The notes: generated by a model not told the origin, from the sequence alone. Shown: positions 9,478 through 41,134, counted from the first letter of the stretch. The stretch is DNA of 64,000 nucleotides from Elusimicrobia bacterium RIFCSPLOWO2_02_FULL_39_32 (GCA_001800135.1 MGUU01000010.1:115696-179695), one strand, 5' to 3'. Numbers and translations are program-made.

Positions 9478-9492
9478 TGTCTGGCAGTTTTT

Positions 9493-9708: not shown

Positions 9709-9738
9709 TAGTTTACTCCTTCAATAGAATGTACCAAA

Positions 9739-10209: not shown

Positions 10210-10239
10210 TTTTTAATAATATTTAATAAAGAAAGATTA

Positions 10240-11241
10240 TTAGCCGCCGGTTTTTGAATTTTCTGTGGAAGGAAGTTCTGTGGGTTGAAAAGAGGGAATT
10301 TCAGTTTCCATTTGAGTCCCCTCTGATACCCCTAGATTAGTCTGCATTGAGTTATTTCCATAATAAAGAGCTGTGAGGTGTCCTATTTCAGAAATAAAGC
10401 TTTTGGCTCTTCTGATTCTTCGAATGTCTTGTGTAAGCACACAAACAATGTAAGTGCTGCTTGGGGCAAATACAATGCCCACATCGTGGCAGCACTCTCG
10501 CATGAGTCCTGTTTTATGGCCCACAGGCCAATAAGAAGGGATGGAAACAGGGAGCCGGTCATTGATTTTTTGATCTTTTAAAATTTCCAGCATCTCCTCG
10601 CTATTCTTTAATTTTTTGTTATAGATCATTTCCAGAATTAAGCCCATGTCTTTGGGCGTGGTGTAGTTCTCAATTCCCTGATCTCTTTTATTTAAATCCA
10701 TAATCTTTCTGGAAAAATTTGTGTTTTTAAGTCCAAGCTGGGAGAAAGAAGAATTGTAATAGGAGAGCCCTAAAAGATCCGTAAGCATGTTGGTTGCGGT
10801 ATTATCTGAAAGAGTGATCATTTTATTAATCAGAGCCCTTAAGGTATAACGGGTTCCAATTCTTTTAAATTTTAAAGAGCCTGACCCAGAGGTTTTAAAT
10901 TTTTTTTTCAGAGCAAGGGTATCCTCTAAAGAAATTAAACCTTGATCCTCTGCCTGAAAAAGAGTAGCCATGATTGGGATTTTTACCAGACTTGCGCTTG
11001 GAAAAAGTTTTTCAGCTTGAACTTCTATGGTCCAGCCCCGGTTGAGATCTTTAATATAGATACCTACAACTCCCGGGAAATGATCAATTTGATATCTGAT
11101 TTTTCTTTTTAACTCCTCCCAGTGAGGATCTGTAGTTGGAGATTGAGAAAAGGTTAAAGAATTTTTGCCAGTTTCTCCTAAGGCTATAATAAGGAAGAAA
11201 ATAGTAAAGAATCTTTTTAAAGTTTGTCGCGAAATGATCAT
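10240..11241 (-). CDS. Secreted class-A beta-lactamase-like serine hydrolase
   Basis: 333 aa with an N-terminal signal-like hydrophobic segment. SxxK (SLVK), SDN (LSDNTATN) and KTG (HKTG) motifs occur in class-A order and spacing. The C-terminal tail is low-complexity. Confidence 0.6.
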   Translation of the reverse strand: MIISRQTLKRFFTIFFLIIALGETGKNSLTFSQSPTTDPHWEELKRKIRYQIDHFPGVVGIYIKDLNRGWTIEVQAEKLFPSASLVKIPIMATLFQAEDQGLISLEDTLALKKKFKTSGSGSLKFKRIGTRYTLRALINKMITLSDNTATNMLTDLLGLSYYNSSFSQLGLKNTNFSRKIMDLNKRDQGIENYTTPKDMGLILEMIYNKKLKNSEEMLEILKDQKINDRLPVSIPSYWPVGHKTGLMRECCHDVGIVFAPSSTYIVCVLTQDIRRIRRAKSFISEIGHLTALYYGNNSMQTNLGVSEGTQMETEIPSFQPTELPSTENSKTGG

Positions 11242-11296
11242 TTTTATAAAGTTAGCATAATAGAATTGGAATCTATCATCTGTTTTTTTAATTTTT

Positions 11297-12397
11297 TTAT
11301 TTGCTAAGAGCGCTAACTTTGCTTAGGTTCTTCATGGCTTTAATAATAGCTTCCCCCATCTCTTTAGTGCCAACCGCGCTAGGGTCATTGGGAAAAGGTT
11401 TCATGTCATAAGTTACAGAGTCTCCTTTTCTAAAGACTTCTTTAATCGCATCATCTAAATTTTTCGCAGCTTCTGTTTCTTTAAGATATTCCAGCATTAG
11501 TTTTGCGGAAAGGATGCAAGCTGAAGGGTTCACCTTATTCATTCCTTTATATTTTGGGGCAGAGCCATGGATCGCCTCAAAAACAGCGATGGTATCCCCA
11601 AAATTCGCTCCCGGGGCCACGCCTAATCCGCCGACTAAACCAGCGCAGAGATCAGAAATAATATCTCCATAAAGGTTAGGCAATACTAAAACATCATAGA
11701 GTTCTGGTTTTTGCACCAGCTGCATGCACATGTTGTCAATTAACCTTTCTTCATATTCAATTTTTCCCTCATAATTTTTAGCAATCTCTCGGGCCACTTC
11801 AAAGAAAAGACCATCCGTGCATTTCATGATATTGGCTTTTGTGACAGCAGTTACTTTTTTTCTATGATTTTTTACAGCATAATCAAAAGCGAATTTTACA
11901 ATCCGGCTGGTTCCGGTTCTTGAGATTGGTTTTATGGAAATGGCTGAATCTTCCCGGATTTTATTTTTGGAAAGTTTAATCACTTCTTTTGCCTCTGGGG
12001 TATGCATGCTCCATTCTATGCCTGCGTAAAGATCTTCTGTGTTTTCCCGTACAATCACCAAATCAATATTTTGGTATCTGGAACGAACCCCCGGGTAAGA
12101 GATGCAGGGCCTTAAACAAACATAAAGATCCAATTCTTTTCTTAAGGCTACATTTACAGAACGGAAACCTGTTCCAATGGGAGTGGTAATTGGCCCTTTA
12201 ATAGCCACTTTATTTTTTCGAATAGATTCAAGCACGCTCTCTGGCAGGGGTGTGCCAACTTTAGCCATAATATCACAACCAGCTTCCTCAACTTCCCATT
12301 CAATTTGAACGCCTGTGGCGTCCACCACTTTCCTTACAGTTTCCATTATTTCTGGTCCTGTTCCATCTCCTGGAATTAAAGTCACTTTATGAATCAC
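11297..12397 (-). CDS. Isocitrate/homoisocitrate/isopropylmalate dehydrogenase family enzyme (NAD-IDH-like)
   Basis: 366 aa with [12 protein letters not shown] and the family signature [27 protein letters not shown]. Substrate cannot be assigned from sequence by eye. Confidence 0.8.
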
Positions 12398-12499
12398 TTT
12401 TTTTCTCCTTCAACCCGCAACCGTGTTAGAAAATATATTCGGATTCAATGCAAATTTATTGAATAGAAAATCGTACAATTTTTGATTTCATTTTTCAAC

Positions 12500-12527
12500 T
12501 TGACTAAAATGTTTTTGTGGGTATATT
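12500..12527 (+). promoter_or_regulatory. Candidate sigma70 promoter for the giant ORF (TTGACT-16 nt-TATATT)
   Basis: The -35 TTGACT is at 12500..12505 and the -10 TATATT at 12522..12527. A second perfect TATAAT sits at 12541..12546. This is the only sizeable intergenic region (12398..12668) upstream of the ORF. Pattern match only. Confidence 0.35.
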
Positions 12528-12668
12528 TCAGTACGCGTACTATAATTTTAAAAGTGGGGTCAAAAATGTTACAAAAATGTTGCAGTTTGTTTAAGAATAG
12601 TTTTATGAGACTTGTTATACTCATGCTTGTGTATGTTAAATTTTAATGAAATTTTGGAGGTGATTTAA

Positions 12669-15600
12669 ATGATTCAGTTTTGGGTTGGACAAAAAAATAG
12701 GAGCTGGTTGAAATTCACTGGAGGTTTGGTGGCGACCAGTTTTTTCTTTACCACAGTCAGCGCGCCATTTGCTTCCGCAAATTTATGGAATGAACGGCGC
12801 AAAGCAGTAGAAGACTTAAAAAAAGAGCCTATGGAAGTTGCTTCTGCTACAGGTCTCCCTTCTTATGAAACAATGGTTGGAAACAGCATCGCCCTGCCTT
12901 CTCCTGAAACTTTGGTAAGTCATGGAGCGATGCAAGAGCTATTAAATAAGGTAAGAGGCGGGAAAATTCAGCATCAACCTAAGATTCATTTAGATCTTCC
13001 TCAAGAATTTGTGAGCCATGTTGAGACTTATGGAGAAGTTGAGCGGCTCTATCTTGCTAATTCTCAAACTTTAAAGTTTTCCAATTTTCTGAACTCATCT
13101 ATTCTGCAACTTACGAATCCCCATTCAACGACCCCTAACTCTAATTCTTTAGTTATCCTTATTCAGGATGCTCATGGAATTTATGGAGTGCAAAAGAATA
13201 TATCAGAGCTGATAAAAGGGTTTAACAATTTTGGAGTAAGGTTGGTAGGTGTAGAGGGCGCTTCCGGAGAGATGACTGGGATTTATCAATGGAGAAATTA
13301 TCCGGATAAAGCGAGTTTAATGAAGGTGGCAAACTATTTATTGGAAAAAGGGCTGTTAAGTGGTGTGGAAGTTGCAGGTTTAGACGGTTCTCCAATCCCC
13401 TCAAATCGTCTGAAGGATGGCAAATTGTGTGAAAATAAAATTCATGACAGATGCCTTAAGAATCATCTTGTATCTGGCGGCGTAGAATTTTATGGAGTGG
13501 AAGAGAAAGAGAACTATTTGGAACAGGTCAAAAGTTTTACAGATACAATCTCTGGGAACAGAGAGGTGACTAGCTGGCTTGAGAAGACTAAAACCGCGAT
13601 TGAGGTTTCTAAAGAGAAAATCTATAGTCCTGAACTTAAAGAGTTAGATAAGAGCAGGGATTTATATGAAAAAGGGGAGTTAAAACTTGGAGAATGGGTT
13701 CAAGGCTTATCTAAGAGAGATTCAAAGATTTTAACTTTTAATTTAAGCAAATATGCAAAGGCTTATGAATTAGAAAGAACAATTAATTTTAAGGAAGTTA
13801 GCGCTGAGCAAAAGAAAATATTGGAGCAGCTCTCACAAAAATTAACTCGGAATCAGTTAGTAGAATTGCTTGAGGAAAGTTTAGCTTATCGTTTAGGAAA
13901 AATCAGCTATGTTGAATTTTATGCTGCGCTTAAAGATCGTTGTGAGAAAGCAAAACTTAAGTTCACTCCAGAATTAGATAAATATATGAAATATGTGGTG
14001 ATTGTAGATGGAATTGATCGGGAGAAACTTTTTGAGGAAGTAAAAAGATTAGAAAATCGAGCAGTACAGGAACTGTTAAAAGGAGCTTCTGCCAATATTA
14101 AATCTTTGGTTCAGATGGATCAGGATTATAGGCTCTTAACTAAAGCGCTTGATTTTAAATTAAGTCCTGAGGAGTGGAGAGAGTTTAATCAAAGAAAAGA
14201 GGAAATAGAGAAAATTGGGATTCAAGTTTTGAATCCTCAAACTCAGCCGGTTCAGGAAGCATTAAAGAATGTCACTCGATTCAATGAATTGTCCCATGAG
14301 AGAAATCATATCTTTGTTGAAAAATTAATTTCTAAATTGGAGGTTAGAAATCTAAATTCTAATAGAGAAGATTTGAATACAGGGTCACGCATTTCAGTGT
14401 TAGTTGCTGGAGGTTATCACACCCGTGGGTTAGAAGAACTATTAAGGAAAAAGGAGATTTCCTACATTGTGATTCGTCCCAATATGGAAAGCTCTGACCT
14501 TAAAGAGGATTATCATCCTTTAAATGCATTTAAAAGAGATGCGCTTCCTTTAGAGAAAATGTTTTATCCAGAGAAGCTCACCATTAATCCCCCCCAAGCC
14601 TTAGAGGGAGCAGTTAAACTTAACCGAGATGATAAACTTGCCAGCATTGTTGGTAGAACTTTTAAGATACTCGCACCAGCTGAAAGCTTATTCAATGGAA
14701 TTAAAGAAAAAATTGCAGAAGCTGCGAATGTTCAGATCAAGGAAGAAGAGTCAGAACAAGGTGTTACTATTGTTAATGTCCGAGATGGCGAAAGGAGCTA
14801 TCGTATTTATAAGACATTGGCTAAGAACAATGAGGTGCTCCAGGAAATATTGAGGAAAGATAAAAATAAAATTAAAGAGACAGAATCAGTTGATTTTAAA
14901 GATGGTTCAAAAAGAGTCCTTGCGCTTGAAAAACCGAGCTTTTTAGCGCAGGTGAAACCTTTTTCTATTCCACCTAAAATTAAGAGTAAAGTACGAAAGG
15001 GATTGATGGTTGTTTATACGCTTCTTGCCACTGCCTGCGGCAATGCTTTTAATATCAATATGAATGCGCCGTTGGTAGATGTTAAAGCAGAGGCGAATGT
15101 AAAGATAGAGAATAATGTGGATATTAATATTAACAATGGTGTTCTCAAAGGAAAAAATGAGTGGGAAATTAAAAGTTCAGATGGAAGGTTTACTGCCAGA
15201 TTTGTGAAAGATATATCTAGCCGATTAATGTATGGACAAGGTGAACTGATAATAACAGATCATGTAACTGGCAGAAAAAAGAAAACAACAATTAGAGGGA
15301 GCATAGAAAATCCTCAGTTTGTTGGCAGGAGACTAGTACTTTTAGTAAAGGATGAACCTTTTGAAAAAGATAAGAATGATGGATTTGGCCCTAGCGTATT
15401 TATTAAAACCTATGCTGCTATGGAAGGTGACGAAGAATATATTATTACTTATGAGAAAAAGAGATATAAAAATATTAAAAATTATGAATTTAGTTCTGAT
15501 CAAGAATATGTTGTGATTCATGAGGATGATCAAGGGAGATCATCCTTACATGTACGCAGGCTTAGAGATGGTATGTATATGGGTGGTTCCAACATCTTTT

Positions 15601-18600
15601 TTAACAATCAGCCCTTATTAAATGCAATGCCCATGGTATTAGAAAAAAAAGAGGATGGAGATTATGTCATTATTCGCAATCAGCAGGGGCAAAGCACAAT
15701 CTATAAATTGAATAAAAATGGCGGTTACATATTAGTAACTAACGTAGAAACACTTTCTCAGCTTCAAGCAGGAGAGATAGATATTGTGACTGGCAAAGCT
15801 CTAAGTGCAATAGAAACAAATACTATATCTTTACCGTTGGTTGGAAGAGATAATATGGGAATTACTGCCACAAAAAGACGCGGGGTAGCGATTTTTTATG
15901 ATAAAGACGAAAAGGGGAATCCCATTACTATTGTCAAATATTCGCCTGAAACACATGTAGAGCGTGAGTTTATTGCAAGCGGGGTATGGCACAGGGTTGG
16001 CGGGGAGAAAGGCATTATAATCAATAAGCCATACTATTTTTCAGTAGATGGGGATAAAGACCAGGAGATTATTTTGGAAATTAAGGATGATAAACTTAGG
16101 GGTCATGGATTCTCTCTTAGAAAATTAGAAAAGGGTAAATGGAGAACAGGAATTCTCTCCCCAGATTTACGCCTAGCTGACACTACTTTAGGTCAGATGA
16201 GGGTTAGAGAAATCAACATTTATGCTAATAATCCTCAAGCTGAAGGCACATTCCGTGTGCGCGGTTTTGGCGATTATTCCAAACTTTTTACTGATCCAAC
16301 CAACATGTTTACTGAAAATGCTAACCATACGCTTTCCTTAAGCGACCGTGTGATCACTGGAGCGCGTGATTTCTTTCTTGGGTTTGTAGGGATTCCTACA
16401 GAAGCTAAAGAGAAAGGGGCTCCTGTATATGTAAAGCAATCTCCAAGGCCAAGAGCAGATTATTCTGTGACTGGGGATAGGTATATATCTGAAATGATGC
16501 GAGGAGAAGTAGTAGTCATGGGAAAGCAGAAAATTGATCCAGACGTTTTCCCTAGAACTAGAGATAATTCATTATTATTTTTCTTAATTCTTTTGTCGCC
16601 TGCAATAATACTAATAATATTAGCTTATATGAGGCATAAAGATATTGAAGCTAGAAGTGAAGATTCTCCCGCAGCTATTCTTTCTAAAAAAATTGCAAAA
16701 TACCAATTTGATAAACTTATCGCTGCTCCATGGATAGAATCTGCTTTATTTCAATTTATTCCTCTAACGATTGCAGTTATATTTTTTGGATTAGAGTTTG
16801 GAACCATTGGTTTTTCGATTGTAGCGTCGATGGGAGTTGCTGTTAACGCTACGTTTTTTTCGATTCACAATGGGATTCCTCGTCACATTAGTATGCTTAT
16901 AGAAGGTATCTTGGTACTTCCCATTAGAGGAGCCATTTTTGTTTTTTCATTTGCTCTTGCTCTGCCAATGGTTTCTTCTCTTTATTCCGCACCCTTTTCT
17001 TTATTCATGTCTCTCACATTCGCTTATCTTATAGAGGCATTCAGTATTTCAGTCTATAATCTACTTGTTTTATCTTTATCGGATCAGTCTATAGGTAGAG
17101 AACTAACTAAAAGTGATTCTGGCAAAAGTCATGATTTGCATGATAATCCGGAAACAAAGGATGAATCTGGTCAGGCGAAAGTGGAGTTTGGAGTAATCCT
17201 TGCTGGCATTGCTTTAGGCTTAGTGCTCTTGTTGACAATGTGTGCTCTTCCTATGCATGCTCAGGCAGCAGTTTTACTTTCACCAGATGCAACATCATCT
17301 CTAGCTACCTCTAAATTGAATGTAACTGGGATGATCGTGACTGGGATACTATTGATGGTAGGTCTGTGGGGTGTAAGTAAATTAAGTAAAAATCAATCCA
17401 CATTTAGTTTTGAGGATGATTGGAATGGTTGGAATGATGTGCTAGCAAGGGCAGATGCAGTAAAAAAAGACGAACAGCCTGCATCCAATCCTTTAATAGA
17501 TATTTTAAAAGATGAAGGTGGACAAGCGAAAGTGGATTTTGGAGTAATCCTTGGTGTCATGGCTTTATGCGCAGTGATCTTTTTGTCAATGTGTTCCCCT
17601 TCTTATGGGGCTGTTTTACTTTCACCAAATGCAACAGCCTCTGTAACAACTTCTGCAGCTACCTCTTCCTCTATATTGGATGGTTCTATATTAGGATGGA
17701 TCGCCCATGGAATAAATTCTGGAGGTCTTGGATCTATTGTGATTATAGGGTTTGTAGCTGCACTGGCACTCTTTTTAGCTTGGAAGTATGACAGTTTGCC
17801 ATTTGAAGGTAGAAATATTTCTGATGATTGGAAAGTGCCAGGAGGAAGACTCTTCTCCTTTTATGCTCCTTTGGCTGGGGTTGTACTTTTGTTCAACACA
17901 GCCTGCGCCGCGATCGGGTTGCCAAATTTAATTCCTGCTACAACGCCAACTCCTGCTGTAACTGCAAGCGCTGTGGTATCACCTACTCCTGCGACGACTC
18001 CTCAACCTACAGAGACACCAGCTGCTGTTATAACAACTCCTCAACCATCGCAAACTCCTCAAAACATCGCTACTGATTCTATAGTGGTAGAGTATGCCGG
18101 TAATTATCCTCACAAGTATCCTCTTTTTGAGCAGAATCCAAATAATCCTGTTACTCATGTTAGACAGAATTTATTAGCCAGCGCAGAGAATGAGCATTTA
18201 AGAGCTGATGCCATAGGTTTTAGTTATTATGGCCCACATATATCAGGTGGACCTGGTTTTAAACTTATTTTAACAGAGCCTGGGACTATGAAATATAAAC
18301 ATTCTTTTTGGGTTGATTACACAAGGGGATATCCTTTAAAAGTTCATATAAGTCCAAATGGCAAAACTGTTGGTGTGCAGTTTAATACATATAATCGGAT
18401 CAAGGGTGTAGAGACTCACTATTACGAACTTTTTGATTTAAATGGGAATAGGATTTTACAGTTTCCTGTTCAGGATAAAAATTATCGTTATGATCGTCAG
18501 GTGAATGCTGCGATTAAAGATGTAGTAATAGATGATACTAATATTTTATTTACTTACCAGGTGGTCAGGGTAGGGATGGATAATGGATATGACAGAGGAT

Positions 18601-20429
18601 TTAAAGTGATGGGATTGGATGAGACACTTTCTATTCCTTATCTTGGTTCACAGGAGGAGATAAAAGGGGTCATAGATGCTAAATTTGGAGATTTTGTGAA
18701 AAATGAGCAGAGTCATTATCTGTTTTCTCAAAGCAATGACCAGAAATTAGAGGTCTATGTGGATAATGACAATGTTGAAAAAAGGCATAGTTTGATTCTG
18801 AAGAATTTAGAGACTGGATTAGAAAGAGTAATTTTTACACATGGTTATGATGATTATAGAACCAGTGTTTGGGACGTAAGATTCAGTCCGAACAGCCAAT
18901 ATTTAGTGATGAATCGCAATGATGATTCTATGTTTAGTACTTTGATTGTTTTAGACAGGAATGGAGATGTGGTCTTTGAATATTCCGGAAGGGGTCAGGA
19001 AAAGATGATCATCCATAACTTTACTGTCAACAATGATTCGATTGTAGTGAAATATGGAGCGGTTATACCTGAGACAAATCCCAGTGGATCTACATCTTAT
19101 ATATATCCTTATGGAACAACTGAGCAGATAGAGACATTGCCATTAGGTTCTTCTAAGACCTCACTATTACAGTCAGCAAAAGATTTTATCGCAGGATTTA
19201 CTGGCGATTTGCCAGCCATGGCAGCGGAGAATGAAGCAACCTTTTCAGCATCTCCAAAACCTGAGCCATCTCCCATGCAAAAGATCAATGAATTAATTAA
19301 GAATAATGACGGTAAAGCGATGAGTGAATATGGCTTGATTATAGCTTTAGCTGCAGCGCTTGTGATTATAAATCCTCCTATTGGTTTGACCATTTTAGGA
19401 GCTGCAGTAGCTTTGCATTTTGCGGCTCGAGTTTTTAGGACAATTCAAGATAAAAAGGCTAAAGTAAAAGTGCATGCTGCAATCTCTAAAAAGATTGATG
19501 CCGCAAAAGATGTAGAGGTAGGGAAGCTAGATGAGAAAATCATAGCAATTGCTTTAAAGGGTACAGCTAATGATCTTGATTCTGCTACCAAGGTAGAGCT
19601 AAAAAGACATATTGAGAAATCTCTTGCTGAGATTGGATCCTATGAAGATAGGGTAGAAGAAGAAAGAGTAGTGACAGAGAAGTTACAACAAACTTTATTT
19701 GCAATTTCTGCAAGTGGAGGAGATGTTGAACTTCTTAAGAGAATTTTTAAGGAACAAGAGGTGGTTCCAGCCAAAGAATTGCTTCAATATTTTGATGTTA
19801 GAGCTAAAAGAGCTCATAAGGAAGATTATGTAAAGGCGCAATGGATATTAGGTGGATTGAAATTAAATCAAGAGAATGCAAGAGCTTTTGAAGCAGCTTA
19901 TAATAGAGGCGTGATTCTCTTAAGTTGGGCTAAGAAAATGGTTCAACAGGCTTCAATCTCGATTGCTAAACTTGGAAAAGGTTTTAAAGTGGTAGATGCC
20001 ACTCCTCTTATGAATGGCAGTGAAGAAGAGAAGGCAAAAACATCTCTTGCTATTAAGAAGTTAGCAGAGTCAGGTGAGAAGTTTGCGCTTCAGGCAAAAG
20101 GGTATGACCGCGCAACCATTGAGCAGAACTTACATCAAACTAAAGAATTAGAAGGAGTAGATATTACTAACATCCTTTATCTCCAAGCGCAACAGGGAGA
20201 AAAGATGAGTTTAGATGAGCTATTTAAGGAGTTGGATGGAATGAAGCTCGCTGGTTTAGGAGTGAAGGTCATCACCACAAATCTTGACAACTGGGATTGG
20301 GAGACGAATGAGAATAAGAGTATTGAGATCTACTATCTTTTGGAAGCTGCGTTTCTAAAACCAGTGCTTAAACTCAAAGAACTCTCAGACGAACTCGCTC
20401 ACGAGAGATTCCTAAAGATCAACGCATAA
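12669..20429 (+). CDS. Giant mosaic membrane/surface protein (2,586 aa), function unknown
   Basis: Uninterrupted 7,761-nt ORF with a GGAGGTG SD (12656..12662) 6 nt before the ATG. Domain order, N- to C-terminal: an N-terminal signal peptide (...SAPFASA/N); a TraB/Tiki-like motif set; an internal lipobox-like segment; beta-rich PD40-like repeats; a polytopic TM block (about aa 1298-1480); two tandem 2-TM modules and a third module each starting with a Flp-prepilin-like motif; a Pro/Thr linker; and a C-terminal helical/coiled-coil region. Confidence 0.9.
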   Translation: MIQFWVGQKNRSWLKFTGGLVATSFFFTTVSAPFASANLWNERRKAVEDLKKEPMEVASATGLPSYETMVGNSIALPSPETLVSHGAMQELLNKVRGGKIQHQPKIHLDLPQEFVSHVETYGEVERLYLANSQTLKFSNFLNSSILQLTNPHSTTPNSNSLVILIQDAHGIYGVQKNISELIKGFNNFGVRLVGVEGASGEMTGIYQWRNYPDKASLMKVANYLLEKGLLSGVEVAGLDGSPIPSNRLKDGKLCENKIHDRCLKNHLVSGGVEFYGVEEKENYLEQVKSFTDTISGNREVTSWLEKTKTAIEVSKEKIYSPELKELDKSRDLYEKGELKLGEWVQGLSKRDSKILTFNLSKYAKAYELERTINFKEVSAEQKKILEQLSQKLTRNQLVELLEESLAYRLGKISYVEFYAALKDRCEKAKLKFTPELDKYMKYVVIVDGIDREKLFEEVKRLENRAVQELLKGASANIKSLVQMDQDYRLLTKALDFKLSPEEWREFNQRKEEIEKIGIQVLNPQTQPVQEALKNVTRFNELSHERNHIFVEKLISKLEVRNLNSNREDLNTGSRISVLVAGGYHTRGLEELLRKKEISYIVIRPNMESSDLKEDYHPLNAFKRDALPLEKMFYPEKLTINPPQALEGAVKLNRDDKLASIVGRTFKILAPAESLFNGIKEKIAEAANVQIKEEESEQGVTIVNVRDGERSYRIYKTLAKNNEVLQEILRKDKNKIKETESVDFKDGSKRVLALEKPSFLAQVKPFSIPPKIKSKVRKGLMVVYTLLATACGNAFNINMNAPLVDVKAEANVKIENNVDININNGVLKGKNEWEIKSSDGRFTARFVKDISSRLMYGQGELIITDHVTGRKKKTTIRGSIENPQFVGRRLVLLVKDEPFEKDKNDGFGPSVFIKTYAAMEGDEEYIITYEKKRYKNIKNYEFSSDQEYVVIHEDDQGRSSLHVRRLRDGMYMGGSNIFFNNQPLLNAMPMVLEKKEDGDYVIIRNQQGQSTIYKLNKNGGYILVTNVETLSQLQAGEIDIVTGKALSAIETNTISLPLVGRDNMGITATKRRGVAIFYDKDEKGNPITIVKYSPETHVEREFIASGVWHRVGGEKGIIINKPYYFSVDGDKDQEIILEIKDDKLRGHGFSLRKLEKGKWRTGILSPDLRLADTTLGQMRVREINIYANNPQAEGTFRVRGFGDYSKLFTDPTNMFTENANHTLSLSDRVITGARDFFLGFVGIPTEAKEKGAPVYVKQSPRPRADYSVTGDRYISEMMRGEVVVMGKQKIDPDVFPRTRDNSLLFFLILLSPAIILIILAYMRHKDIEARSEDSPAAILSKKIAKYQFDKLIAAPWIESALFQFIPLTIAVIFFGLEFGTIGFSIVASMGVAVNATFFSIHNGIPRHISMLIEGILVLPIRGAIFVFSFALALPMVSSLYSAPFSLFMSLTFAYLIEAFSISVYNLLVLSLSDQSIGRELTKSDSGKSHDLHDNPETKDESGQAKVEFGVILAGIALGLVLLLTMCALPMHAQAAVLLSPDATSSLATSKLNVTGMIVTGILLMVGLWGVSKLSKNQSTFSFEDDWNGWNDVLARADAVKKDEQPASNPLIDILKDEGGQAKVDFGVILGVMALCAVIFLSMCSPSYGAVLLSPNATASVTTSAATSSSILDGSILGWIAHGINSGGLGSIVIIGFVAALALFLAWKYDSLPFEGRNISDDWKVPGGRLFSFYAPLAGVVLLFNTACAAIGLPNLIPATTPTPAVTASAVVSPTPATTPQPTETPAAVITTPQPSQTPQNIATDSIVVEYAGNYPHKYPLFEQNPNNPVTHVRQNLLASAENEHLRADAIGFSYYGPHISGGPGFKLILTEPGTMKYKHSFWVDYTRGYPLKVHISPNGKTVGVQFNTYNRIKGVETHYYELFDLNGNRILQFPVQDKNYRYDRQVNAAIKDVVIDDTNILFTYQVVRVGMDNGYDRGFKVMGLDETLSIPYLGSQEEIKGVIDAKFGDFVKNEQSHYLFSQSNDQKLEVYVDNDNVEKRHSLILKNLETGLERVIFTHGYDDYRTSVWDVRFSPNSQYLVMNRNDDSMFSTLIVLDRNGDVVFEYSGRGQEKMIIHNFTVNNDSIVVKYGAVIPETNPSGSTSYIYPYGTTEQIETLPLGSSKTSLLQSAKDFIAGFTGDLPAMAAENEATFSASPKPEPSPMQKINELIKNNDGKAMSEYGLIIALAAALVIINPPIGLTILGAAVALHFAARVFRTIQDKKAKVKVHAAISKKIDAAKDVEVGKLDEKIIAIALKGTANDLDSATKVELKRHIEKSLAEIGSYEDRVEEERVVTEKLQQTLFAISASGGDVELLKRIFKEQEVVPAKELLQYFDVRAKRAHKEDYVKAQWILGGLKLNQENARAFEAAYNRGVILLSWAKKMVQQASISIAKLGKGFKVVDATPLMNGSEEEKAKTSLAIKKLAESGEKFALQAKGYDRATIEQNLHQTKELEGVDITNILYLQAQQGEKMSLDELFKELDGMKLAGLGVKVITTNLDNWDWETNENKSIEIYYLLEAAFLKPVLKLKELSDELAHERFLKINA
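17160..17860 (+). repeat. Tandem intragenic duplication (2 copies, about 351 nt period) of a Flp-like leader plus 2-TM module
   Basis: Copy 1 begins gatgaatctggtcaggcgaaagtggagtttggagtaatccttg (17160). Copy 2 begins gatgaaggtggacaagcgaaagtggattttggagtaatccttg (17511). The protein copies also share AVLLSP(D/N)AT(S/A)S, a second TM helix and a DDW(N/K) motif. Confidence 0.75.
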
Positions 20430-20458
20430 TTTTTGACTGCAACACTCTTTTTAGTTCA

Positions 20459-20503
20459 AGTTAACCCGAATAAATCCTACTAGATTATTCGGGTTAACTT
20501 TTG
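20459..20503 (+). terminator. Candidate intrinsic terminator after the giant ORF
   Basis: Perfect 15-bp inverted repeat: agttaacccgaataa (20459..20473) and ttattcgggttaact (20485..20499), with an 11-nt loop, followed by TTTGG. The U-tract is short. Confidence 0.5.
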
Positions 20504-20517
20504 GTATAGTTCTTTCT
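20472..20517. repeat. 46-bp direct repeat, copy A (left flank of the TA cassette)
   Basis: aaatcctactagattattcgggttaacttttggtatagttctttct matches 21053..21098 at 43 of 46 positions. The offset is exactly 581 bp. Confidence 0.9.
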
Positions 20518-20518
20518 A

Positions 20519-20779
20519 TCAAATTCGGTAGATTTCTCGCCGATGTCCTACCTTTACTATTTCTATGGTTTGGTGGGTATCGTTTATTGAATAAACGATA
20601 CGCCAATCCCCTTGCCGAATGCGGTATTTTTCTTCTCCGGAAAGTTTTTCACACCCATGGGGTCTTGGCTCTATAGAAAGTGATTGAACTTTACTAACAA
20701 TTCTTGTTAAGTCTATCTTTGGAACCAGTCTTAATTCCTTTTCAGCGCTCCTTTTAATGAGAACCTTATAGGATGCCAT
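20519..20779 (-). CDS. RelE/ParE-family toxin
   Basis: The best start is MASYKV (ATG at 20779), giving 86 aa; the ORF track's upstream extension is unlikely. The C-terminal part (YRIRQGDWRIVYSINDTHQTIEIVKVGHRREIY) is typical of RelE/ParE. It overlaps the upstream antitoxin gene by 14 nt. Confidence 0.75.
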   Translation of the reverse strand: MASYKVLIKRSAEKELRLVPKIDLTRIVSKVQSLSIEPRPHGCEKLSGEEKYRIRQGDWRIVYSINDTHQTIEIVKVGHRREIYRI

Positions 20780-20993
20780 CTCGTTTAAGCTCTTTGAGTA
20801 CGGTTTCGAAAGGTCTAACGGGTTCCTTGCTCCTTTTGTGGAAGGCATCTAAATCTGCCTTATCTTCACGGAGCGAAAAAGTTAAAGCATCGTTTACAAT
20901 GTTCGAGAGACTTTTTTCCGTAAGAGCAGACTTAACTTTAGCAGCTCTGTAAAGCTTAGGGTTTAGATAAATGGTTGTTCTAGTGAATGACAT
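20766..20993 (-). CDS. Ribbon-helix-helix (CopG-like) antitoxin
   Basis: The start is placed at MSFTRTTIYL because a strong AGGAGGTG SD lies 5-6 nt upstream of that ATG. The N-terminal beta-strand plus two helices (TTIYLNPKLYRAAKVKSALTEKSLSNIVNDAL) is RHH-like. It is translationally coupled to the toxin. Confidence 0.7.
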   Translation of the reverse strand: MSFTRTTIYLNPKLYRAAKVKSALTEKSLSNIVNDALTFSLREDKADLDAFHKRSKEPVRPFETVLKELKRDGIL

Positions 20994-21052
20994 AATCCCA
21001 CCTCCTGATAGCATTATAACATTAAAACGTTAAAATGTCAAAAATGTTATGA

Positions 21053-21098
21053 AAATCCTACTGGGTTATTCGGGTTAACTTTTGGTATAGTTCTTCCT
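21053..21098. repeat. 46-bp direct repeat, copy B (covers the stop codon and last 12 codons of the GT4 gene)
   Basis: aaatcctactgggttattcgggttaacttttggtatagttcttcct. See copy A at 20472..20517. Confidence 0.9.
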
Positions 21099-22218
21099 GC
21101 TTTATGACCATGTTATAGATATCAAAAGAGTCATCAATGGTTTGAGAGGCATTTTTTTTAAGAGATTGAAGGAGAGATTGGTCTTGTAAAATTTGAACAA
21201 TTTTTTCTGCCATCTCATTAACTTGGCTAGGCGGGATGAGGAAGCCATTTTGATTATTTTTAATGATTTCCTTTAAGCCATCCACTGCAAAAGCAATTAC
21301 CGGATTTCCCACAATCAGAGCTTCTACAGCTGCGCGCGGCAATCCTTCCCAAAGAGAAGTAAGCACAAACAGGTCTGAAATCTGAAGGATTTGAGGTATA
21401 TCCCTGCGCCATCCTAAAAGCTGAATGTTTTTTTCAATGTCCTGTTTTTTGATTTCTTTTTCAATATTAGTTCGTAGTTCTCCATCCCCTACCATAAGAA
21501 ATTGAACTTGAGGAATGTTTTGTAAAACTAACCCTGCCATCTTAATAAAAGTAACAGGATCTTTTTGAATTTTGAATGGCGCTACATTTAAGATAATTTT
21601 GGATTGAGGTGATATTCCCAATTCTTTGCGCAAAAGTTCAGGGTTAGAATTTTCAGCTTCTTTTTTTATCTTCTTAATATCCACCCCGCTGCGAATTAGA
21701 GTATATTGTTCAGCTTTTCCAATCCCAAGGCTTAATCCCTCTTGAATATTTTCTTTAGTTACCGCGATTAGTCTCTCAGTGAATTTTCCAATCCATTTTT
21801 CCAAAAATATGAAGAGTTTTCTGGTCCAAATTTTTTGAAAGGGATTAAAACCAAATCCATGAATGGAATGGATGATACAGGGCACGCCTAGAAGCCATGC
21901 GGCAATTCTGCCAACAATGCCTGCTTTGGAAGAATGCGTATGCACAATTTGAGGACCCTCTTTTTTTAAGATTTTATAGATTTTAATTAAGGCGATAAAA
22001 TCATTGAGAGGGTGGATGGGCCGCACCAGTTCATTGACAAAATAAACTTTAAGTTGAGGGATTTTTTTTGCTTCTTCATCTAAATATCCGCCTAACCCAC
22101 AAATTAAGCCGACTTCAAATTTGTCTCGATTTAGATGCGACACTGTAAAAAGAGTGTTCTGCTGCGCTCCCCCCAGCTCCAGAAGAGTTACCACATGAAA
22201 TACTTTTATTTTTTCCAC
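21058..22218 (-). CDS. Glycosyltransferase family 4 (GT-B, group 1)
   Basis: 386 aa with an N-terminal GGAQ motif and a C-terminal EGLPRAAVEALIVGNPVIA (EX7E) motif. Confidence 0.8.
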   Translation of the reverse strand: MEKIKVFHVVTLLELGGAQQNTLFTVSHLNRDKFEVGLICGLGGYLDEEAKKIPQLKVYFVNELVRPIHPLNDFIALIKIYKILKKEGPQIVHTHSSKAGIVGRIAAWLLGVPCIIHSIHGFGFNPFQKIWTRKLFIFLEKWIGKFTERLIAVTKENIQEGLSLGIGKAEQYTLIRSGVDIKKIKKEAENSNPELLRKELGISPQSKIILNVAPFKIQKDPVTFIKMAGLVLQNIPQVQFLMVGDGELRTNIEKEIKKQDIEKNIQLLGWRRDIPQILQISDLFVLTSLWEGLPRAAVEALIVGNPVIAFAVDGLKEIIKNNQNGFLIPPSQVNEMAEKIVQILQDQSLLQSLKKNASQTIDDSFDIYNMVIKQEELYQKLTRITQ

Positions 22219-22335
22219 AAATTTATCATATCAAATTTATTAATCAGATTACCCTTAAAGATTCTACTTTTTAGGTAATTTTTGTATGAATTTAATTGAA
22301 AAATAAGGTGAGAAGGGATAAAATTAAAATTCACA

Positions 22336-23388
22336 ATGATCCTTTTTATTGCTAGTCAAGAAACTGATTATCTCCAGGATTTAACTTATTCTGGCTTAGC
22401 GCAAATTTTAGGAAAAGAATCTATTGTGGATTTTCCCTTTCATTGGCAGTATCATCAAGAAAAAAGGTTTATCTGGTCTTCGAAAAATTGCTATCCAAAA
22501 AATTTAGGATTTGTACCTGAAAAAGAATTTAAATCATCCTGCAATCGCTCTAAAGGGTTTGTACAGATCAAAGAGCTCTTAAGAAAAAATCATTTTAGGT
22601 TAGTTATTCTTGGCGCAGCTAAACCAGATGCATTGCGTACATTCCATGAGCTTTCAGATCTAGTGCGAGCGCCTTGGATATTTATTGATGGCGGGGATTG
22701 GCAGGAAGTAGGCGGTGACTTTAAAAGAACTGGCGGAGAAGAGAGTTTTAATTGTTTTCTTTCTCTTTGTAATAAAATTCCACCAGCAGCTATCTTTAAA
22801 AGAGAAGTTCCTATTAATAAAAATTTAGAGAAGCTCTTTCCTCTACCTTTTTCAGTATCATCTCAAGTTCCTATTTTAAAAAGCGTTTCCAAAAAGATTT
22901 GGAATGTAGTTTTTTGGGCTGTGGAATCTTCATCAACTAGGAAAAAAGTTTTTGAACTTCTTAAGGATAGGTATGACTGTAAAATGAATGGCTCAATTTC
23001 AGGACAGAAATTTAAAGATTATAATTTTAAAGGGAACCATTATTTTAAAGCTCTAAATGAAGCAAAAATTGCTTTGAGTTTTAGAGGAGGGGGTTTTGAT
23101 ACTCTTAGGTATTGGGAAATTCCTGCTTGCGGCTCACTTCTAATTTCTGAAAAACCTTTCATTCAAATCCCCAATAATTTTATTCATGGCGAGCACGCGC
23201 TTTTTTGTAAAAATGATCTTTCTGATTTAACTCATTTGATTGACACCTATCTTTTAAATGAAAAAGATTCTCAAGCTATATCAGAAGAAGGCCAAAAGCA
23301 TCTTTTAAAATATCATACAGACAAACACCGCGCTCAATATCTTTTAGAACTTTTAAATTCCAAATTGAATTTAAATTTTAAGTTTTGA
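22336..23388 (+). CDS. Putative CgeB-like / group-1-related glycosyltransferase
   Basis: 350 aa. The C-terminal half (FRGGGFDTLRYWEIPACGSLLISEKP...HALFC) resembles the CgeB/DUF3880-type GT-B C-terminal domain. Recognition by eye only. Confidence 0.4.
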   Translation: MILFIASQETDYLQDLTYSGLAQILGKESIVDFPFHWQYHQEKRFIWSSKNCYPKNLGFVPEKEFKSSCNRSKGFVQIKELLRKNHFRLVILGAAKPDALRTFHELSDLVRAPWIFIDGGDWQEVGGDFKRTGGEESFNCFLSLCNKIPPAAIFKREVPINKNLEKLFPLPFSVSSQVPILKSVSKKIWNVVFWAVESSSTRKKVFELLKDRYDCKMNGSISGQKFKDYNFKGNHYFKALNEAKIALSFRGGGFDTLRYWEIPACGSLLISEKPFIQIPNNFIHGEHALFCKNDLSDLTHLIDTYLLNEKDSQAISEEGQKHLLKYHTDKHRAQYLLELLNSKLNLNFKF

Positions 23389-23407
23389 GTATGCTCAAAC
23401 TCCAGAG

Positions 23408-38550: not shown

Positions 38551-40392
38551 TTAGTTTTTTATATCAATGATTTTATTTTTTATTATTTCTATGTTAAATT
38601 CAAGCAGTCTTTTTGAATAGGGGCTAGAGGGCTTTAAGTCAGAGCTCGCTATTTGTAACGCATTTTTAAAAAATTTTAATGCAGAGTTTTTGTCCCCTTT
38701 TAAAAGATAACAATCCCCCAATCGAACATGAGCTAAAATATAGAATGGCTCAATTTGTATTGATTTTTGATAAAGGCTAAGGGCAGGTTCTATCCTCTTC
38801 ATTAAAAGATAGGTTTCTGCCAGTTCTAAATAATAAAAGCAATTTTTAGGATTGAGTTTTATCGCTTTTTCATAAGATTGAATAGCTTCTAGAACATTTC
38901 CATTTACTATATATTTTCGCGCTAGTTCTACATACAGGTCATCATCTTTGGAATTAAAAAGTATCGCTTGTTTTAATAATTTTACTGAGTTGTTTTCAGC
39001 GATTGAGTCCCTTGCTTTTAGAATTTCTGAATTAAATGGATTTAAGAGGGATGCATATTTATAAACAGCTATTGTTTTTTTTCTTTCTCCTGATTTTTTA
39101 TAAAAATTTCCAAGATTAAATAAGGTTTGGGAAATAAGAATGGTAAGCCCTATTGCACTCCATGGAAGAAGCAGCGCTTTTAAATAGAATTTTTTTTTAA
39201 TAGAGTAAAAATTTTTTTGAATACCATCTTCTTTTGAAGATAAAAAAATAGTTGTAAAAAATATTAAAAGCAAGGCGAGGATCGGTAAGTGCAAATTAAA
39301 ATCAAATAGGCTTTGGGTTAGAAGACAAAAAGATGAAATAAAAGCAGCATCTATTTTCCAATTTAGACATTCTTCTTTCTTAACCGCAATAAATCCTGAT
39401 CGTAAAATAGAGAAAATCAGCCAGATATAGGATATTAATCCAATCACCCCCATTTCTACAGCAATTTGAATAAATTCATTGTGGGCAAATCTTGTGGTTT
39501 TTTCATACCGGGCTAACTCATATTCGATTGGACGTTTTGTTAGACCATATACCTGGCCAAAACTTCCCAATCCCCACCCCCAAAAAGGTTTAGAATAAAA
39601 TGCATCTAGAGAACCTTGCCAAATGGTTATTCTTGAATATTCCTTTGGGTTGATAAATTTGGAAACCAGCGCCTCTGTTTTATTTTGAGTGATCAGAAGC
39701 ATGGTAAAGAAGATTAAGCAGGTTAAAAAAATAGGAAAAATAAATTTTTTGAAATGACCTACAAGTAGAACTGTAAGAGAGAGAAAAAGACTTAGAAAAG
39801 CTCCTCGCGATATAAATTCAAGCTGCGCATGAAGCATGAGTAAAAGAGAAAATATCAAACCAGCTGCTTTTAGATAGGTCTTGGTGTTTTTATCTTTGAG
39901 GGAGAAAACTATTTTGCAAACAACTGAAAGAATTCCGATATTTAAAAAATAGGAAAATAGGTTTTCATTAGGTAGAAAAAAATAAGATGGAATTTTTAAT
40001 AAGTTTTGAATAATGATTAAAATGCTGGAGAAGGAACAAATCCAAATAATTAAATCAAAGAATTTTTCTTGGAAATTGTCATTATTCATTTTTAATAGGA
40101 GCTGGAAATTTAGAAGATGTATGCAAAGAGTCGTAAAATAAACCAATCCGCGAGATTGAGAGAACATGGAATAGAGTGTTGAAAAAGCGCATACGCATAC
40201 GAATGTAAATAAAGGAAGGTCAAGGGCGGTTTTCTTAAGTTTAAATTTTGGATTGAAACGCAAAAAAAGAAAAATCGAGCTTATATGATAAATGGCTAAA
40301 CCAGTTACTTCCCTCCCCCCTTTGAATAAATAGAGGAGGATAAAAGAAATAAAGAAATAGTTTTGAGGATGATTAGATGATAAAAAGGGCAC
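38551..40392 (-). CDS. O-antigen ligase-like (Wzy_C) membrane protein with C-terminal TPR repeats
   Basis: 613-aa polytopic protein with the motif GWGLGSFGQ...FAHNEFIQIAVEMGVIGL. The C-terminus has clear TPR repeats (AIQSYEKAIKLNPKN..., ALSLYQKSIQIEP..., ALKFFKNALQI). It overlaps the pilD stop by 20 nt. Confidence 0.65.
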   Translation of the reverse strand: MPFLSSNHPQNYFFISFILLYLFKGGREVTGLAIYHISSIFLFLRFNPKFKLKKTALDLPLFTFVCVCAFSTLYSMFSQSRGLVYFTTLCIHLLNFQLLLKMNNDNFQEKFFDLIIWICSFSSILIIIQNLLKIPSYFFLPNENLFSYFLNIGILSVVCKIVFSLKDKNTKTYLKAAGLIFSLLLMLHAQLEFISRGAFLSLFLSLTVLLVGHFKKFIFPIFLTCLIFFTMLLITQNKTEALVSKFINPKEYSRITIWQGSLDAFYSKPFWGWGLGSFGQVYGLTKRPIEYELARYEKTTRFAHNEFIQIAVEMGVIGLISYIWLIFSILRSGFIAVKKEECLNWKIDAAFISSFCLLTQSLFDFNLHLPILALLLIFFTTIFLSSKEDGIQKNFYSIKKKFYLKALLLPWSAIGLTILISQTLFNLGNFYKKSGERKKTIAVYKYASLLNPFNSEILKARDSIAENNSVKLLKQAILFNSKDDDLYVELARKYIVNGNVLEAIQSYEKAIKLNPKNCFYYLELAETYLLMKRIEPALSLYQKSIQIEPFYILAHVRLGDCYLLKGDKNSALKFFKNALQIASSDLKPSSPYSKRLLEFNIEIIKNKIIDIKN

Positions 40393-41134
40393 TAAAGGAA
40401 CCTAAGGATAAAAAAGGTCCAAAAGGAATAGTGGAATTAGATTCTAGTTTTTTTAAAATTAGAAAAGGCAGTATAAAAAAAGTTCCTGAGGCACAGGCTA
40501 AGATCAAGGCAAGATTTGTTCCTTGCCAACCCAGCCAACATCCAACCGCACCCATCAGTTTTATATCCCCTAAACCTAAAGCTTCTTTTTTAAATATTTT
40601 TTCTCCTGACCAGCGTACAAGAGTCATGAGCATTAACCCATAAAAGCCTCCCAATAAATTTTGCCAGATCTGCGTTATTCCTCCCTGTTGAGATAAGGAG
40701 AATAAAAGTCCTCCAGCAGCTAAAATAATGATTAAATCATTGGGAATGATCCCATATTCTTTATTGTTTTGAAAATAAGTTATAAGATCAATTCCACTGA
40801 TCAAAAAAAGGATAAATGAATAGATAAGATAAAGAATAACTATTTGATTAGGCTCGGTTTGAAATTTTAAACTGACAAGTAGAAATAAAATTCCACAACT
40901 TAATTCTATCAATGGATAAACAACAGAAATTTTTTGTTTGCAGAACCGGCAAAGACCTTTAAGCAATATAAAGGATAAAAGAGGAATATTATCGCACCAC
41001 GGAATAGGATGACCACAGGTAGGACAGAATGATTTTGGACTCCAAAGGGATAACTGTTTTGGAGTTCTATAAAAATAGACATTGGCAAAGGAACCAAAGA
41101 TTAGACCGTAGCAGAAAATAGTAAAGAAGTTCAT
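40373..41134 (-). CDS. pilD: Prepilin peptidase / N-methyltransferase (A24 family)
   Basis: 253 aa with an N-terminal Cys cluster (CPTCGHPI...CRFCKQKI). The two catalytic Asp contexts are present (SGIDL... and GLGDIKLMGAVG). Confidence 0.9.
   Translation of the reverse strand: MNFFTIFCYGLIFGSFANVYFYRTPKQLSLWSPKSFCPTCGHPIPWCDNIPLLSFILLKGLCRFCKQKISVVYPLIELSCGILFLLVSLKFQTEPNQIVILYLIYSFILFLISGIDLITYFQNNKEYGIIPNDLIIILAAGGLLFSLSQQGGITQIWQNLLGGFYGLMLMTLVRWSGEKIFKKEALGLGDIKLMGAVGCWLGWQGTNLALILACASGTFFILPFLILKKLESNSTIPFGPFLSLGSFSALFII

Follow-up and report, generated by a model that had tools for sequence, protein, structure and literature searches.

The stretch of 64,000 nucleotides from Elusimicrobia bacterium RIFCSPLOWO2_02_FULL_39_32 (GCA_001800135.1, MGUU01000010.1:115696-179695) that we analysed, and which at its full length we call the window, holds a giant gene coding for a protein of 2,586 amino acids (aa), from an uncultured groundwater Elusimicrobia bacterium. 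The family to which this gene belongs is very large and apparently without a name; its members begin with a signal peptide and a head of TIKI type, continue with a variable body and finish with a tail conserved within the clade. What distinguishes the present member is that pilin-type and lipoprotein-type signals lie inside its chain. The explanation that we favour, and that we consider probable, is that the gene makes a genuine mosaic protein, targeted by the Sec system and threaded in multiple passes through the inner membrane. The open reading frame (ORF) and its N-terminal part are laid out as follows:

12669..20429, + strand: whole ORF, 2,586 aa and a stop codon, one open frame throughout
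12669..12779, + strand: Sec-type signal peptide (aa 1-37), with a basic n-region, an h-region and an ASA/N site
12780..12833, + strand: conserved basic motif NLWNERRKAVEDLKK directly after the signal peptide, of the form (N/S)xW.ER(R/K) in the Elusimicrobia clade
13116..14603, + strand: TIKI/ChaN-superfamily head (aa ~150-645), from alignments, an AlphaFold2 (AF2) model and profile matches in relatives
13506..14378, + strand: helical insert in the head (~290 aa, aa ~280-570), all-helical in the AF2 model, splitting the core

Many other long proteins are similar to this one over its first ~640 residues. When aa 1-650 are searched exhaustively with HMMER, 6,032 clusters (50% identity) are retrieved at E<=1e-3; at E<=1e-10 their number is 3,630. 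The match is nearly always N-terminal, in proteins mostly 600-7,800 aa long. The named sources are Elusimicrobia (Elusimicrobiota), Omnitrophota and Auribacterota, and many Omnitrophota proteins of 2,000-4,500 aa contain the head domain of the window gene. A pattern scan of the GTDB representative genomes confirmed 444 loci, and paralogs number at least 9 in the closest metagenome-assembled genome (MAG), and 8-11 in other Elusimicrobia MAGs. A preliminary description of this DNA had seen in the gene a stand-alone oddity: with such numbers of relatives and paralogs this is not borne out. The cleavable-looking Sec signal, then placed at aa 1-38, is present as aa 1-37 and its layout is shared family-wide, since the N-termini of the family are classical signal peptides, with a basic n-region, a hydrophobic core of 15-20 aa and an AxA site. 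Behind the head, the sequence is highly varied, with Pfam domains as diverse as phosphoglucomutase, UDP-glucose pyrophosphorylase, PEP-utilising enzymes, hexokinase, protein kinases, UbiB with M48, glutamine synthetase, radical SAM and Lon. The head domain has no Pfam model of its own, and searches of the whole protein against Pfam and NCBIfam, as well as of five pieces of it against Pfam, returned sub-threshold matches only; nothing useful came from a PDB sequence search with the N-terminal 770 aa.

Two observations touch the loci of this family. One locus (L011, DATDTA010000086.1), binned as 'Candidatus Nanoarchaeia archaeon', codes for a head domain 51% identical to that of the window; a binning error is more likely here than a true archaeal member. 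Furthermore, a long antisense ORF runs within the head-coding region at 35 of 80 related loci, in which we see no gene but a side effect of the conservation of the coding sequence.

A mosaic of this kind invites the suspicion of an assembly chimera, or of genes fused by sequencing error, and synonymous divergence (dS) that wanders between 0.016 and 0.63 along the gene could be read in the same sense. We deem this exceedingly improbable. Six public metagenome runs, from groundwater samples with the organism at a word depth of ~20-30x, contain every sampled 31-mer of the stretch, and in 4 of these a single contig spans 12400-20500 with 0 differences, no gaps and no joints, these four runs being not fully independent, as some are possibly one data set filed repeatedly. 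A partial protein in an ENA assembly (P0003), 100% identical to the window protein, says the same. There is also a full-length ortholog (P0002) of 2,571 aa, 86% identical, found in a groundwater Elusimicrobia MAG (GCA_016180425.1) and in two Logan assemblies, with the same end-to-end architecture in the three. Synteny extends over the fatty-acid synthesis (fab) genes, NDK, a β-lactamase-like gene (bla) and Iso_dh on one side, and over ParE and GT4 on the other. The frame contains no stops or frameshifts, and the ratio of non-synonymous to synonymous divergence (dN/dS), computed like dS over 100-codon windows between the window gene and this ortholog, is 0.08-0.56 in most of them, reaching 0.93 at aa 1293-1390 and about 1 at aa 1491-1587, where a segment has been replaced and is not homologous to that of the ortholog. 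Paralogs show the same layout from head to tail. Because the assemblies are identical, the ortholog syntenic and dN/dS below 1 nearly throughout, mis-assembly and masked frameshifts are very unlikely; a check for chimeric joints or hidden stops, which had been proposed beforehand, revealed none.

The identity of the head comes from its relatives. Alignments with 26 and with 36 homologs leave Q166, D167, H169, Q175, E196, R545, G581, G582 and H584 invariant; D167-x-H169, E196 and H584 are kept in 36/36 aligned homologs, with an H-to-E spacing of 27 residues. An AF2 model of the head built from 36 sequences (predicted local distance difference test, pLDDT, 79; predicted template-modelling score, pTM, 0.74) displays five β-strands with flanking helices, at model positions 22-28, 53-56, 134-138, 436-442 and 459-465. 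When the 36 head homologs are scanned with Pfam, PF04187 ('Haem-binding uptake, Tiki superfamily, ChaN') appears in 9, with a best E = 3.9e-7, one of the matches spanning the C-terminal R...GxxH part of the profile; no other family is matched by more than 5 of the 36. The superfamily has been described as built on a parallel β-sheet core with a 2His/2Glu catalytic motif (E3900-x-H3902, E3930, H4030), spaced as E-x-H...(28 aa)...E, and its domains are often joined to varied extra domains (PMC6254334). We conclude that the head should be a divergent TIKI-superfamily domain, endowed with a complete set of catalytic-type residues, and it would most likely act as a periplasmic hydrolase, protease or esterase in an active state. 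The TraB/Tiki-like domain noted earlier is in this way supported, by PF04187 in the relatives and by the invariant D-x-H...E...H, while the Foldseek comparison is weak (see below). As for the helical insert, profile searches point weakly but consistently to EF-hand pairs, namely those of calmodulin, troponin C and myosin light chain (E ~1e-3): read from the sequence, its EF-hand-like loops keep Gly6, Ile/Leu8 and Glu12, and do not keep the calcium-ligand positions 3 and 5.

The family matched by the relatives is that of ChaN, a cofacial haem-binding lipoprotein, and one might imagine that the head acts as ChaN does, hydrolysing nothing, and that the protein is a membrane-anchored device for uptake or sensing of haem or iron. 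This we find hard to believe: a D-x-H/E/H set, invariant here, is what one typically meets in those TIKI members that are enzymes (PMC6254334), the gene has no neighbours for transport of iron or haem, and the cargo found downstream of the head is extremely diverse. An enzymatic head, exported and followed by membrane-threaded cargo, remains the reading that we follow from here on. The remainder of the chain comprises:

14955..15038, + strand: internal lipoprotein-signal-like segment (aa 763-790), KIKSKVRK followed by a 12-aa hydrophobic core and LATAC790
15039..16538, + strand: β-rich domain 1 (aa 791-1290), predicted outside the cytoplasm, with a FFLGFVGIPTEA motif at 16374-16406
16560..17078, + strand: membrane block (aa 1298-1470), ~5 transmembrane (TM) helices from hydropathy peaks and flanking charges, no Pfam match
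17157..17507, + strand: Flp-like module 1, a 117-aa unit made of KDESG1501/QAKVEF, a TM segment, AQA/A, AVLLSP, a second TM segment, a basic patch and DDW
17508..17849, + strand: Flp-like module 2, KDEGG1618/QAKVDF..., tandem duplicate of module 1
17850..17921, + strand: second lipobox-like hydrophobic segment (aa 1728-1751), LLFNTAC1746AAIGLP
17922..18077, + strand: Pro/Thr linker (aa 1752-1803), 47% P+T, no K or R
18078..19253, + strand: β-rich domain 2 (aa 1804-2195), predicted outside, ending in a IAGFTGDLPAMA motif
19281..19436, + strand: Flp-like module 3 (aa 2205-2256), NNDG2215/KAMSEYGLII...NPP..., last hydrophobic segment before the tail
19437..20426, + strand: C-terminal tail (aa 2257-2586), basic at its start and predicted to be in the cytoplasm
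19848-20426, + strand: conserved C-terminal domain, the last ~190 aa, from an iterative search

Strong TM hydropathy peaks stand at 1301, 1359-1386, 1414, 1452, 1509, 1552, 1624, 1686, 1733 and 2217-2256, and the lysine and arginine (K+R) content of the loops between them alternates:

Loop aa 1320-1358: K+R 7, in
Loop aa 1528-1549: K+R 1, out
Loop aa 1571-1621: K+R 7, in
Loop aa 1643-1683: K+R 0, out
Loop aa 1705-1727: K+R 4, in
Pro/Thr linker: K+R 0, out
Start of tail: K+R 8, in

Because of this alternation, and because aa 1298-1470 contain five helices, the head would be outside together with β-rich domain 1 and the tail inside, and the whole would form a mostly coherent multi-pass topology with both β-rich domains outside. 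The 5-6-TM block of the preliminary description is recovered with about 5 helices, its Pro/Thr linker is present, and its suggestion of a multi-pass protein fits the charge bias. FFSIH and WIES had made us think of a CPBP/Rce1-like identity for this block of helices, which we dropped as Pfam did not support it. The lipoprotein-type signal reported at aa 770-790 is a more delicate matter. The segment (...LLATAC790) is there, and it is kept in the ortholog as LLAAAC, while in the paralog P0004 the equivalent, internal as well, has the canonical lipobox LGGC. Its hydrophobic core, however, is short (Kyte-Doolittle 1.39 over 19 aa) and LATAC790 fits permissive lipobox patterns only; FNTAC1746 falls outside [LVI][ASTVI][GAS]C, and both elements are internal, not N-terminal. 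P0004 has ...AILSCTAIGLP ahead of its own Pro/Thr linker.

With these elements in place, a plausible itinerary of the chain can be proposed. The head and β-rich domain 1 would be exported first, and the five helices of aa 1298-1470 would follow; next would come the two Flp-like units, of two TM segments each, with their leaders facing the cytoplasm. The lipobox-like segment of aa 1728-1751 would then act as a start-transfer sequence, placing the Pro/Thr linker and β-rich domain 2 outside, until the hydrophobic segment of module 3 returned the basic tail to the cytoplasm. The β-rich domains might be binding modules exposed at the envelope. As to their origin, the internal signals could be the signal sequences of once-independent genes (Flp pilin, lipoproteins), captured in frame and now working as start-transfer and stop-transfer segments; the cleavage-type motifs being under constraint, limited processing may occur.

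The Flp-like modules start at residues 1497, 1614 and 2205 of 2,586, and each has an acidic leader ending in glycine, a glutamate or aspartate at +5, an aromatic residue at +6 and ~20 hydrophobic residues: the 2+1 modules described previously are indeed present, at G1501, G1618 and G2215, with Pfam scores that stay sub-threshold. The leader end '...KDESG' presumably resembles that of canonical Flp leaders. Submitted singly to Flp_Fap, modules 1 and 3 score E = 1.8e-3 and 6e-3 (18.5 and 16.7 bits, sub-threshold), and the module of the ortholog reaches 15.6 bits with Class_IIIsignal vs a cut-off of 23.7. A hidden Markov model (HMM) made from five modules detects further internal copies in diverged paralogs (...EEDGQAKVEAGVIF, ...GESGQASVELSLIL, ...EEGSARIEFGLIV, ...EEGTSTVEYGLIL, ...EEGTSMVEYGIL), such modules being found in 10 of 266 family proteins; in several relatives, 340-450 aa separate them from the C-terminus. 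All 11 of 11 modules have Gly(-1), and 10/11 have Glu/Asp(+5), a stronger constraint than a plain TM helix calls for. Behind modules 1 and 2 come an AxA-like site and an AVLLS motif, and the same holds for their counterparts in the ortholog and in P0004.

A pattern of this kind leads one to ask, as the preliminary description did in speaking of post-translational dissection, whether the protein is a polyprotein, that is, a precursor cut by envelope peptidases at its internal signals. Prepilin peptidase (PilD, or a TadV that we do not see) would cut after G1501, G1618 and perhaps G2215, signal peptidase I (SPase I) at AQA/A (aa 1533/1534), and LspA before C790 and/or C1746. Out of this would come a fragment with the head, one or two very small pilin units of Flp type, β-rich proteins carrying a lipid anchor, and a fragment with the tail. 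We think this unlikely, while giving it more weight than any other alternative to a threaded mosaic. The Gly(-1) and Glu/Asp(+5) positions persist in modules that are otherwise 37-52% identical, diverged paralogs remain near-canonical (EEGTSTVEYGLIL-type), modules 1 and 2 have leaders predicted to face the cytoplasm, the right side for prepilin peptidase, and AxA sites come after the first helix in module 1, in the ortholog and in a paralog. Lipobox-like cysteines, including the canonical LGGC, occupy matching positions in P0004, cleavage of the giant proteins of Omnitrophota has been raised, with class III signal-peptide genes nearby (West-Roberts et al.), and the window itself has a PilD gene:

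40373..41134, minus strand: PilD-type prepilin peptidase (A24_N_bact and Peptidase_A24), candidate processing enzyme, linkage to the giant gene not shown

Yet this PilD lies 20 kb away, in an ordinary type IVa pilus (T4aP) cluster, the window has no Tad or small Flp genes, the Flp_Fap scores are below threshold and the FNTAC lipobox is non-canonical. Under the best topology, module 3 and the aa 770-790 element would be wrongly oriented for their peptidases. No direct evidence of cleavage was found, a literature search on internal prepilin-peptidase sites and polyproteins returned nothing relevant, and captured signals could for a time retain their motifs unused. Extended to the family, the idea would make its members envelope polyproteins, each a Sec-inserted precursor divided at the membrane by the prepilin peptidase, LspA and SPase I of the cell, possibly with the TIKI head as a maturation protease, and this we hold to be doubtful; the pieces would then be anchored separately, and conserved head and tail would bracket interchangeable cargo.

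A protein threaded intact through the membrane is the reading that we retain, and the points that weigh against it should be set out together. Its topology is a prediction from hydropathy and the positive-inside rule. If the head is exported, no stop-transfer sequence precedes the aa 770-790 segment, and Flp-like module 3 has to run inwards through the membrane, the reverse of a prepilin: here the topology, once described as contradictory, does conflict with itself, while being mostly coherent by charge bias elsewhere. In the paralog P0004 the charge bias favours, in our own reading, a cytoplasmic head, so that export of the head is a tentative prediction. For the whole protein, Flp_Fap gives E = 3.1e-4 and 20.9 bits, sub-threshold vs a Pfam gathering cut-off of 32.2. 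The window's own head has no PF04187 match, only 9 of its 36 relatives having one, and Foldseek found no significant match of the head in the PDB (best E = 0.35, template-modelling score TM<0.3). These last scores are low because the 290-aa helical insert dominates the head model, and the top of the list nonetheless holds HopBA1 (5T09), EreC (6XCS), Bcr135 (3B55) and RRSP (5W6L/6A8J/6A7H); HopBA1 (5T09), Bcr135 (3B55), ChaN (2G5G) and RRSP are TIKI-superfamily members, with which the erythromycin-esterase family has been grouped (PMC6254334). The AF2 model of the last 300 aa (pLDDT 44) is unusable. Finally, none of the metatranscriptome runs searched had the gene, and no expression data were found.

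The β-rich domains had been labelled PD40-like, and of this label one part stands. There are two β-rich regions, but neither gives a PD40 match in Pfam, multiple blade repeats are not recognised by profile, and a single blade of WD40/PD40 type is seen in domain 2 (FSPNSQY, 18882-18902; match in aa ~2063-2107), so that the label is weakly supported. Domain 2 resembles the designed propeller of PDB 6R60 over its whole sequence (E = 1.5e-7, no single stretch being significant) and matches Pfam WD40 in one stretch at E = 0.16. Domain 1 has no Pfam or PDB match and is similar to two repeats in P0004 and P0005. Both domains end in ...(F/I)(L/A)GF(V/T)G..., a signature limited to the closest paralogs. 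A large protein with β-rich regions and a Pro/Thr linker might simply be a conventional giant adhesin or surface protein, delivered by a type I (T1SS), type V (T5SS), two-partner (TPS) or type IX (T9SS) secretion system, its hydrophobic segments being incidental. This is very improbable: Pfam reports no match at E<=1-10 to RTX, Ig-like, cadherin, autotransporter, TPS or T9SS C-terminal domains, there are at least 10 strong TM segments with a consistent positive-inside pattern, no partner genes lie nearby, and no neighbour is conserved across 80 related loci. A search for a known adhesin family, which had been asked for at the outset, matched none in Pfam or NCBIfam.

Comparison with the ortholog lets one see how the mosaic protein, as we understand it, would change. 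Modules 1 and 2 are linked by a direct repeat (17156-17252 vs 17507-17603) of 80% nucleotide identity at a spacing of 351 nt, a duplication visible in DNA only, self-BLAST of the protein having returned no internal repeats. The ortholog has a single module (G/QANVEY), preceded by NHL repeats where the window has module 1. The 351-nt duplication, and the NHL repeats in the ortholog's place, show a turnover of cassettes between close relatives. Along the gene dS is very uneven: in the β-rich domains it is 0.016-0.18 (0.03-0.18 in domain 1, 0.016-0.08 over most of domain 2), in the head and tail 0.2-0.63, the β-rich domains, at 0.016-0.1, being 5-20-fold lower. Since dS is so uneven, and low in the β-rich domains, it suggests that these cassettes were recently recombined or gene-converted between lineages. 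What lies between head and tail is made of variable cassettes that are rapidly reshuffled.

The tail, by contrast with this middle, is conserved. Its last ~190 aa align with the extreme C-terminus of a relative of 5,672 aa (P0024), and an iterative search through 266 family proteins places this C-terminal domain at the very end of 17 of them, finishing in ...(I/V)(Q/N)(A/Q); a word-based search with the tail found the ortholog only. Secondary-structure prediction suggests that the domain is a small mixed α/β unit. The ~370-aa helical tail of the preliminary description therefore stands as a tail, whose last part is conserved, but its predicted structure is mixed and not purely helical. Signal peptide, TIKI head (at aa ~50-650), long variable body and conserved tail are, in sequence terms, the architecture of the clade.

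The gene has the following features at its borders:

12398..12668, + strand: upstream intergenic region, 271 bp, carrying a sigma70-like site and a Shine-Dalgarno sequence
12500-12527, + strand: sigma70-like site TTGACT-16-TATATT, best in the gap, 10/12 matches
12656-12660, + strand: Shine-Dalgarno GGAGG, 8 nt 5' of the ATG
~20458-20500, + strand: 3' hairpin GTTAACCCGAATAA...TTATTCGGGTTAAC, perfect stem of ~16 bp, 3' of the stop codon
20519-20848 and 20766-21014, minus strand: ParE toxin / RHH antitoxin, separating the giant gene from GT4

The 271-bp gap, the strong Shine-Dalgarno sequence and the 3' hairpin that had been claimed are all found, the hairpin region having, over 96 nt, a folding energy of -22.6 kcal/mol (z = -4.45); no T-run terminator was called at this hairpin. 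It also holds that 12669..20429 is the sole long + strand gene of the window, nearly all others being on the minus strand: outside longer minus-strand ORFs, the only other + strand gene of at least 150 aa codes for a 350-aa glycosyltransferase (22336-23388). In the promoter region, a piece of 36 nt (12562-12597, AAAAATGTTACAAAAATGTTGCAGTTTGTTTAAGAA) recurs, with 1 mismatch, on two further long contigs belonging to the same metagenome assemblies, perhaps as a common element of regulatory or repeat nature; it has no match among 83 fetched loci, and its 22-nt core is not repeated in the window or in the fetched loci. On the other side of the gene, the stretch 20472-20500 has a second match ~581 bp off on the contigs that carry it, in keeping with a direct repeat in the flank.

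The immediate neighbours are Iso_dh upstream and the ParE/RHH toxin-antitoxin pair downstream, beyond which come glycosyltransferases, a UGM-like flavoenzyme and a WecA-like transferase. At the ortholog's locus (L081), a HicA/HicB pair occupies the upstream gap (9368-9773), while it is absent from 12398-12668 of the window, and two extra genes (427 and 452 aa; function not assigned) are inserted between ParE and GT4 (18512-21141), absent from 20849-21057. Because of these genes, present in the ortholog and missing here, the flanks of the giant gene appear to be hot spots for small insertions. Among the upstream genes of 80 related loci no conserved neighbour was found, and the largest neighbour 'cluster' of these loci proved to be an antisense artefact inside the head: genetically, the family members stand alone. 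That no dedicated secretion partner lies nearby had been remarked before, and the window has no T1SS, T5SS or TPS genes, nor Tad genes or small Flp genes. The remark must nevertheless be tempered, for a full type IVa pilus cluster (26515-43039: PilQ, P, O, N, M, PilD, PilA, PilC) lies downstream, PilQ, the secretin (32120-34093), and PilD being 12-22 kb from the gene. The PilA that adjoins PilD carries G/FTLIE. Interspersed among the pilus genes are three genes with a Wzy_C domain, of which one also has TPR repeats, and two genes for large YfhO/DUF6541-like membrane proteins. Pilin O-oligosaccharyltransferases (PilO/TfpO, PglL) carry a Wzy_C domain, and because of this the Wzy_C genes could glycosylate pilins, perhaps also Ser/Thr/Pro-rich linkers such as aa 1752-1803.

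Why should such a gene matter? Thousands of long proteins, from three phyla about which little is known, bear its head domain, for which Pfam offers no family, and the complete TIKI-type catalytic set provides a biochemical entry point to proteins that fill a sizeable share of these small genomes. At 2.6 kaa the protein can be cloned, and its three in-chain pilin-type leaders offer a practical test of whether it is threaded intact or cut, a question left open by the literature on the giant genes of Omnitrophota. Should internal cleavage be true, the substrates of prepilin peptidase would extend to internal sites. The pair formed by the window gene and its ortholog illustrates mosaic evolution, with a tandem duplication, an NHL swap and β-rich domains that are nearly identical at synonymous sites next to a diverged head and tail.

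It remains to place the protein among known systems. With the TIKI superfamily (ChaN PF04187, EreA/B/C, Bcr135/136, TraB/PrgY/GumN PF01963, vertebrate Tiki1/2, RRSP of MARTX toxins, HopBA1) the head shares, compared with the RRSP motif, a D-x-H...E (27 vs 28 residues)...G-x-x-H set equivalent to the 2His/2Glu one, and its predicted α/β core of about five strands would resemble theirs. It differs in that its first acidic residue is Asp where theirs is Glu, in that its core is split by ~290 aa of helical insert with a degenerate EF-hand-like pair, and in its situation, behind a signal peptide and at the front of membrane proteins of several thousand residues. The lipoprotein-like elements recall the substrates of Lgt and LspA by their basic n-region, short hydrophobic core and small-residue-Cys, followed by a linker and a β-rich domain; unlike these substrates they are internal, the first, LATAC790, has no stop-transfer helix upstream and conflicts in orientation with an exported head, and FNTAC1746 is non-canonical. 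Flp/Fap prepilins (PF04964) and class III signal peptides have the same Gly-ended acidic leader, Glu/Asp at +5 and aromatic residue at +6 as the modules (G/QAKVEF, G/QAKVDF, G/KAMSEY). In prepilins, however, this signal is N-terminal in a protein of 50-80 aa, whereas the modules of the window are internal to a chain of 2,586 aa, score below threshold and have no Tad machinery in the window, and module 3 is predicted to take the opposite direction in the membrane.

A further parallel is with the giant proteins of Omnitrophota, which two preprints describe as combining a signal peptide with TM segments in unreliable topologies, with a possible proteolytic subdivision, and in whose vicinity they report genes for type II/IV secretion or pili and for class III signal peptides (West-Roberts et al. 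2023, 10.1101/2023.11.21.568195; 10.64898/2026.06.07.730766); neither preprint mentions TIKI, ChaN or TraB. Those giants exceed 10,000 aa (10,000-30,000) and carry SecA-DEAD, C39, S8 or dockerin domains, while the window protein, from Elusimicrobia, has 2,586 aa and none of these domains. The giants of West-Roberts et al. come directly after a locus resembling type II secretion or type IV pilus systems and before pilZ, whereas the window gene is flanked by Iso_dh and the ParE pair, with its T4aP genes 12-22 kb off. What the window protein has in common with them is to be very long and largely unannotated, to join a signal peptide to many TM helices, and to present us with the same puzzling topology.

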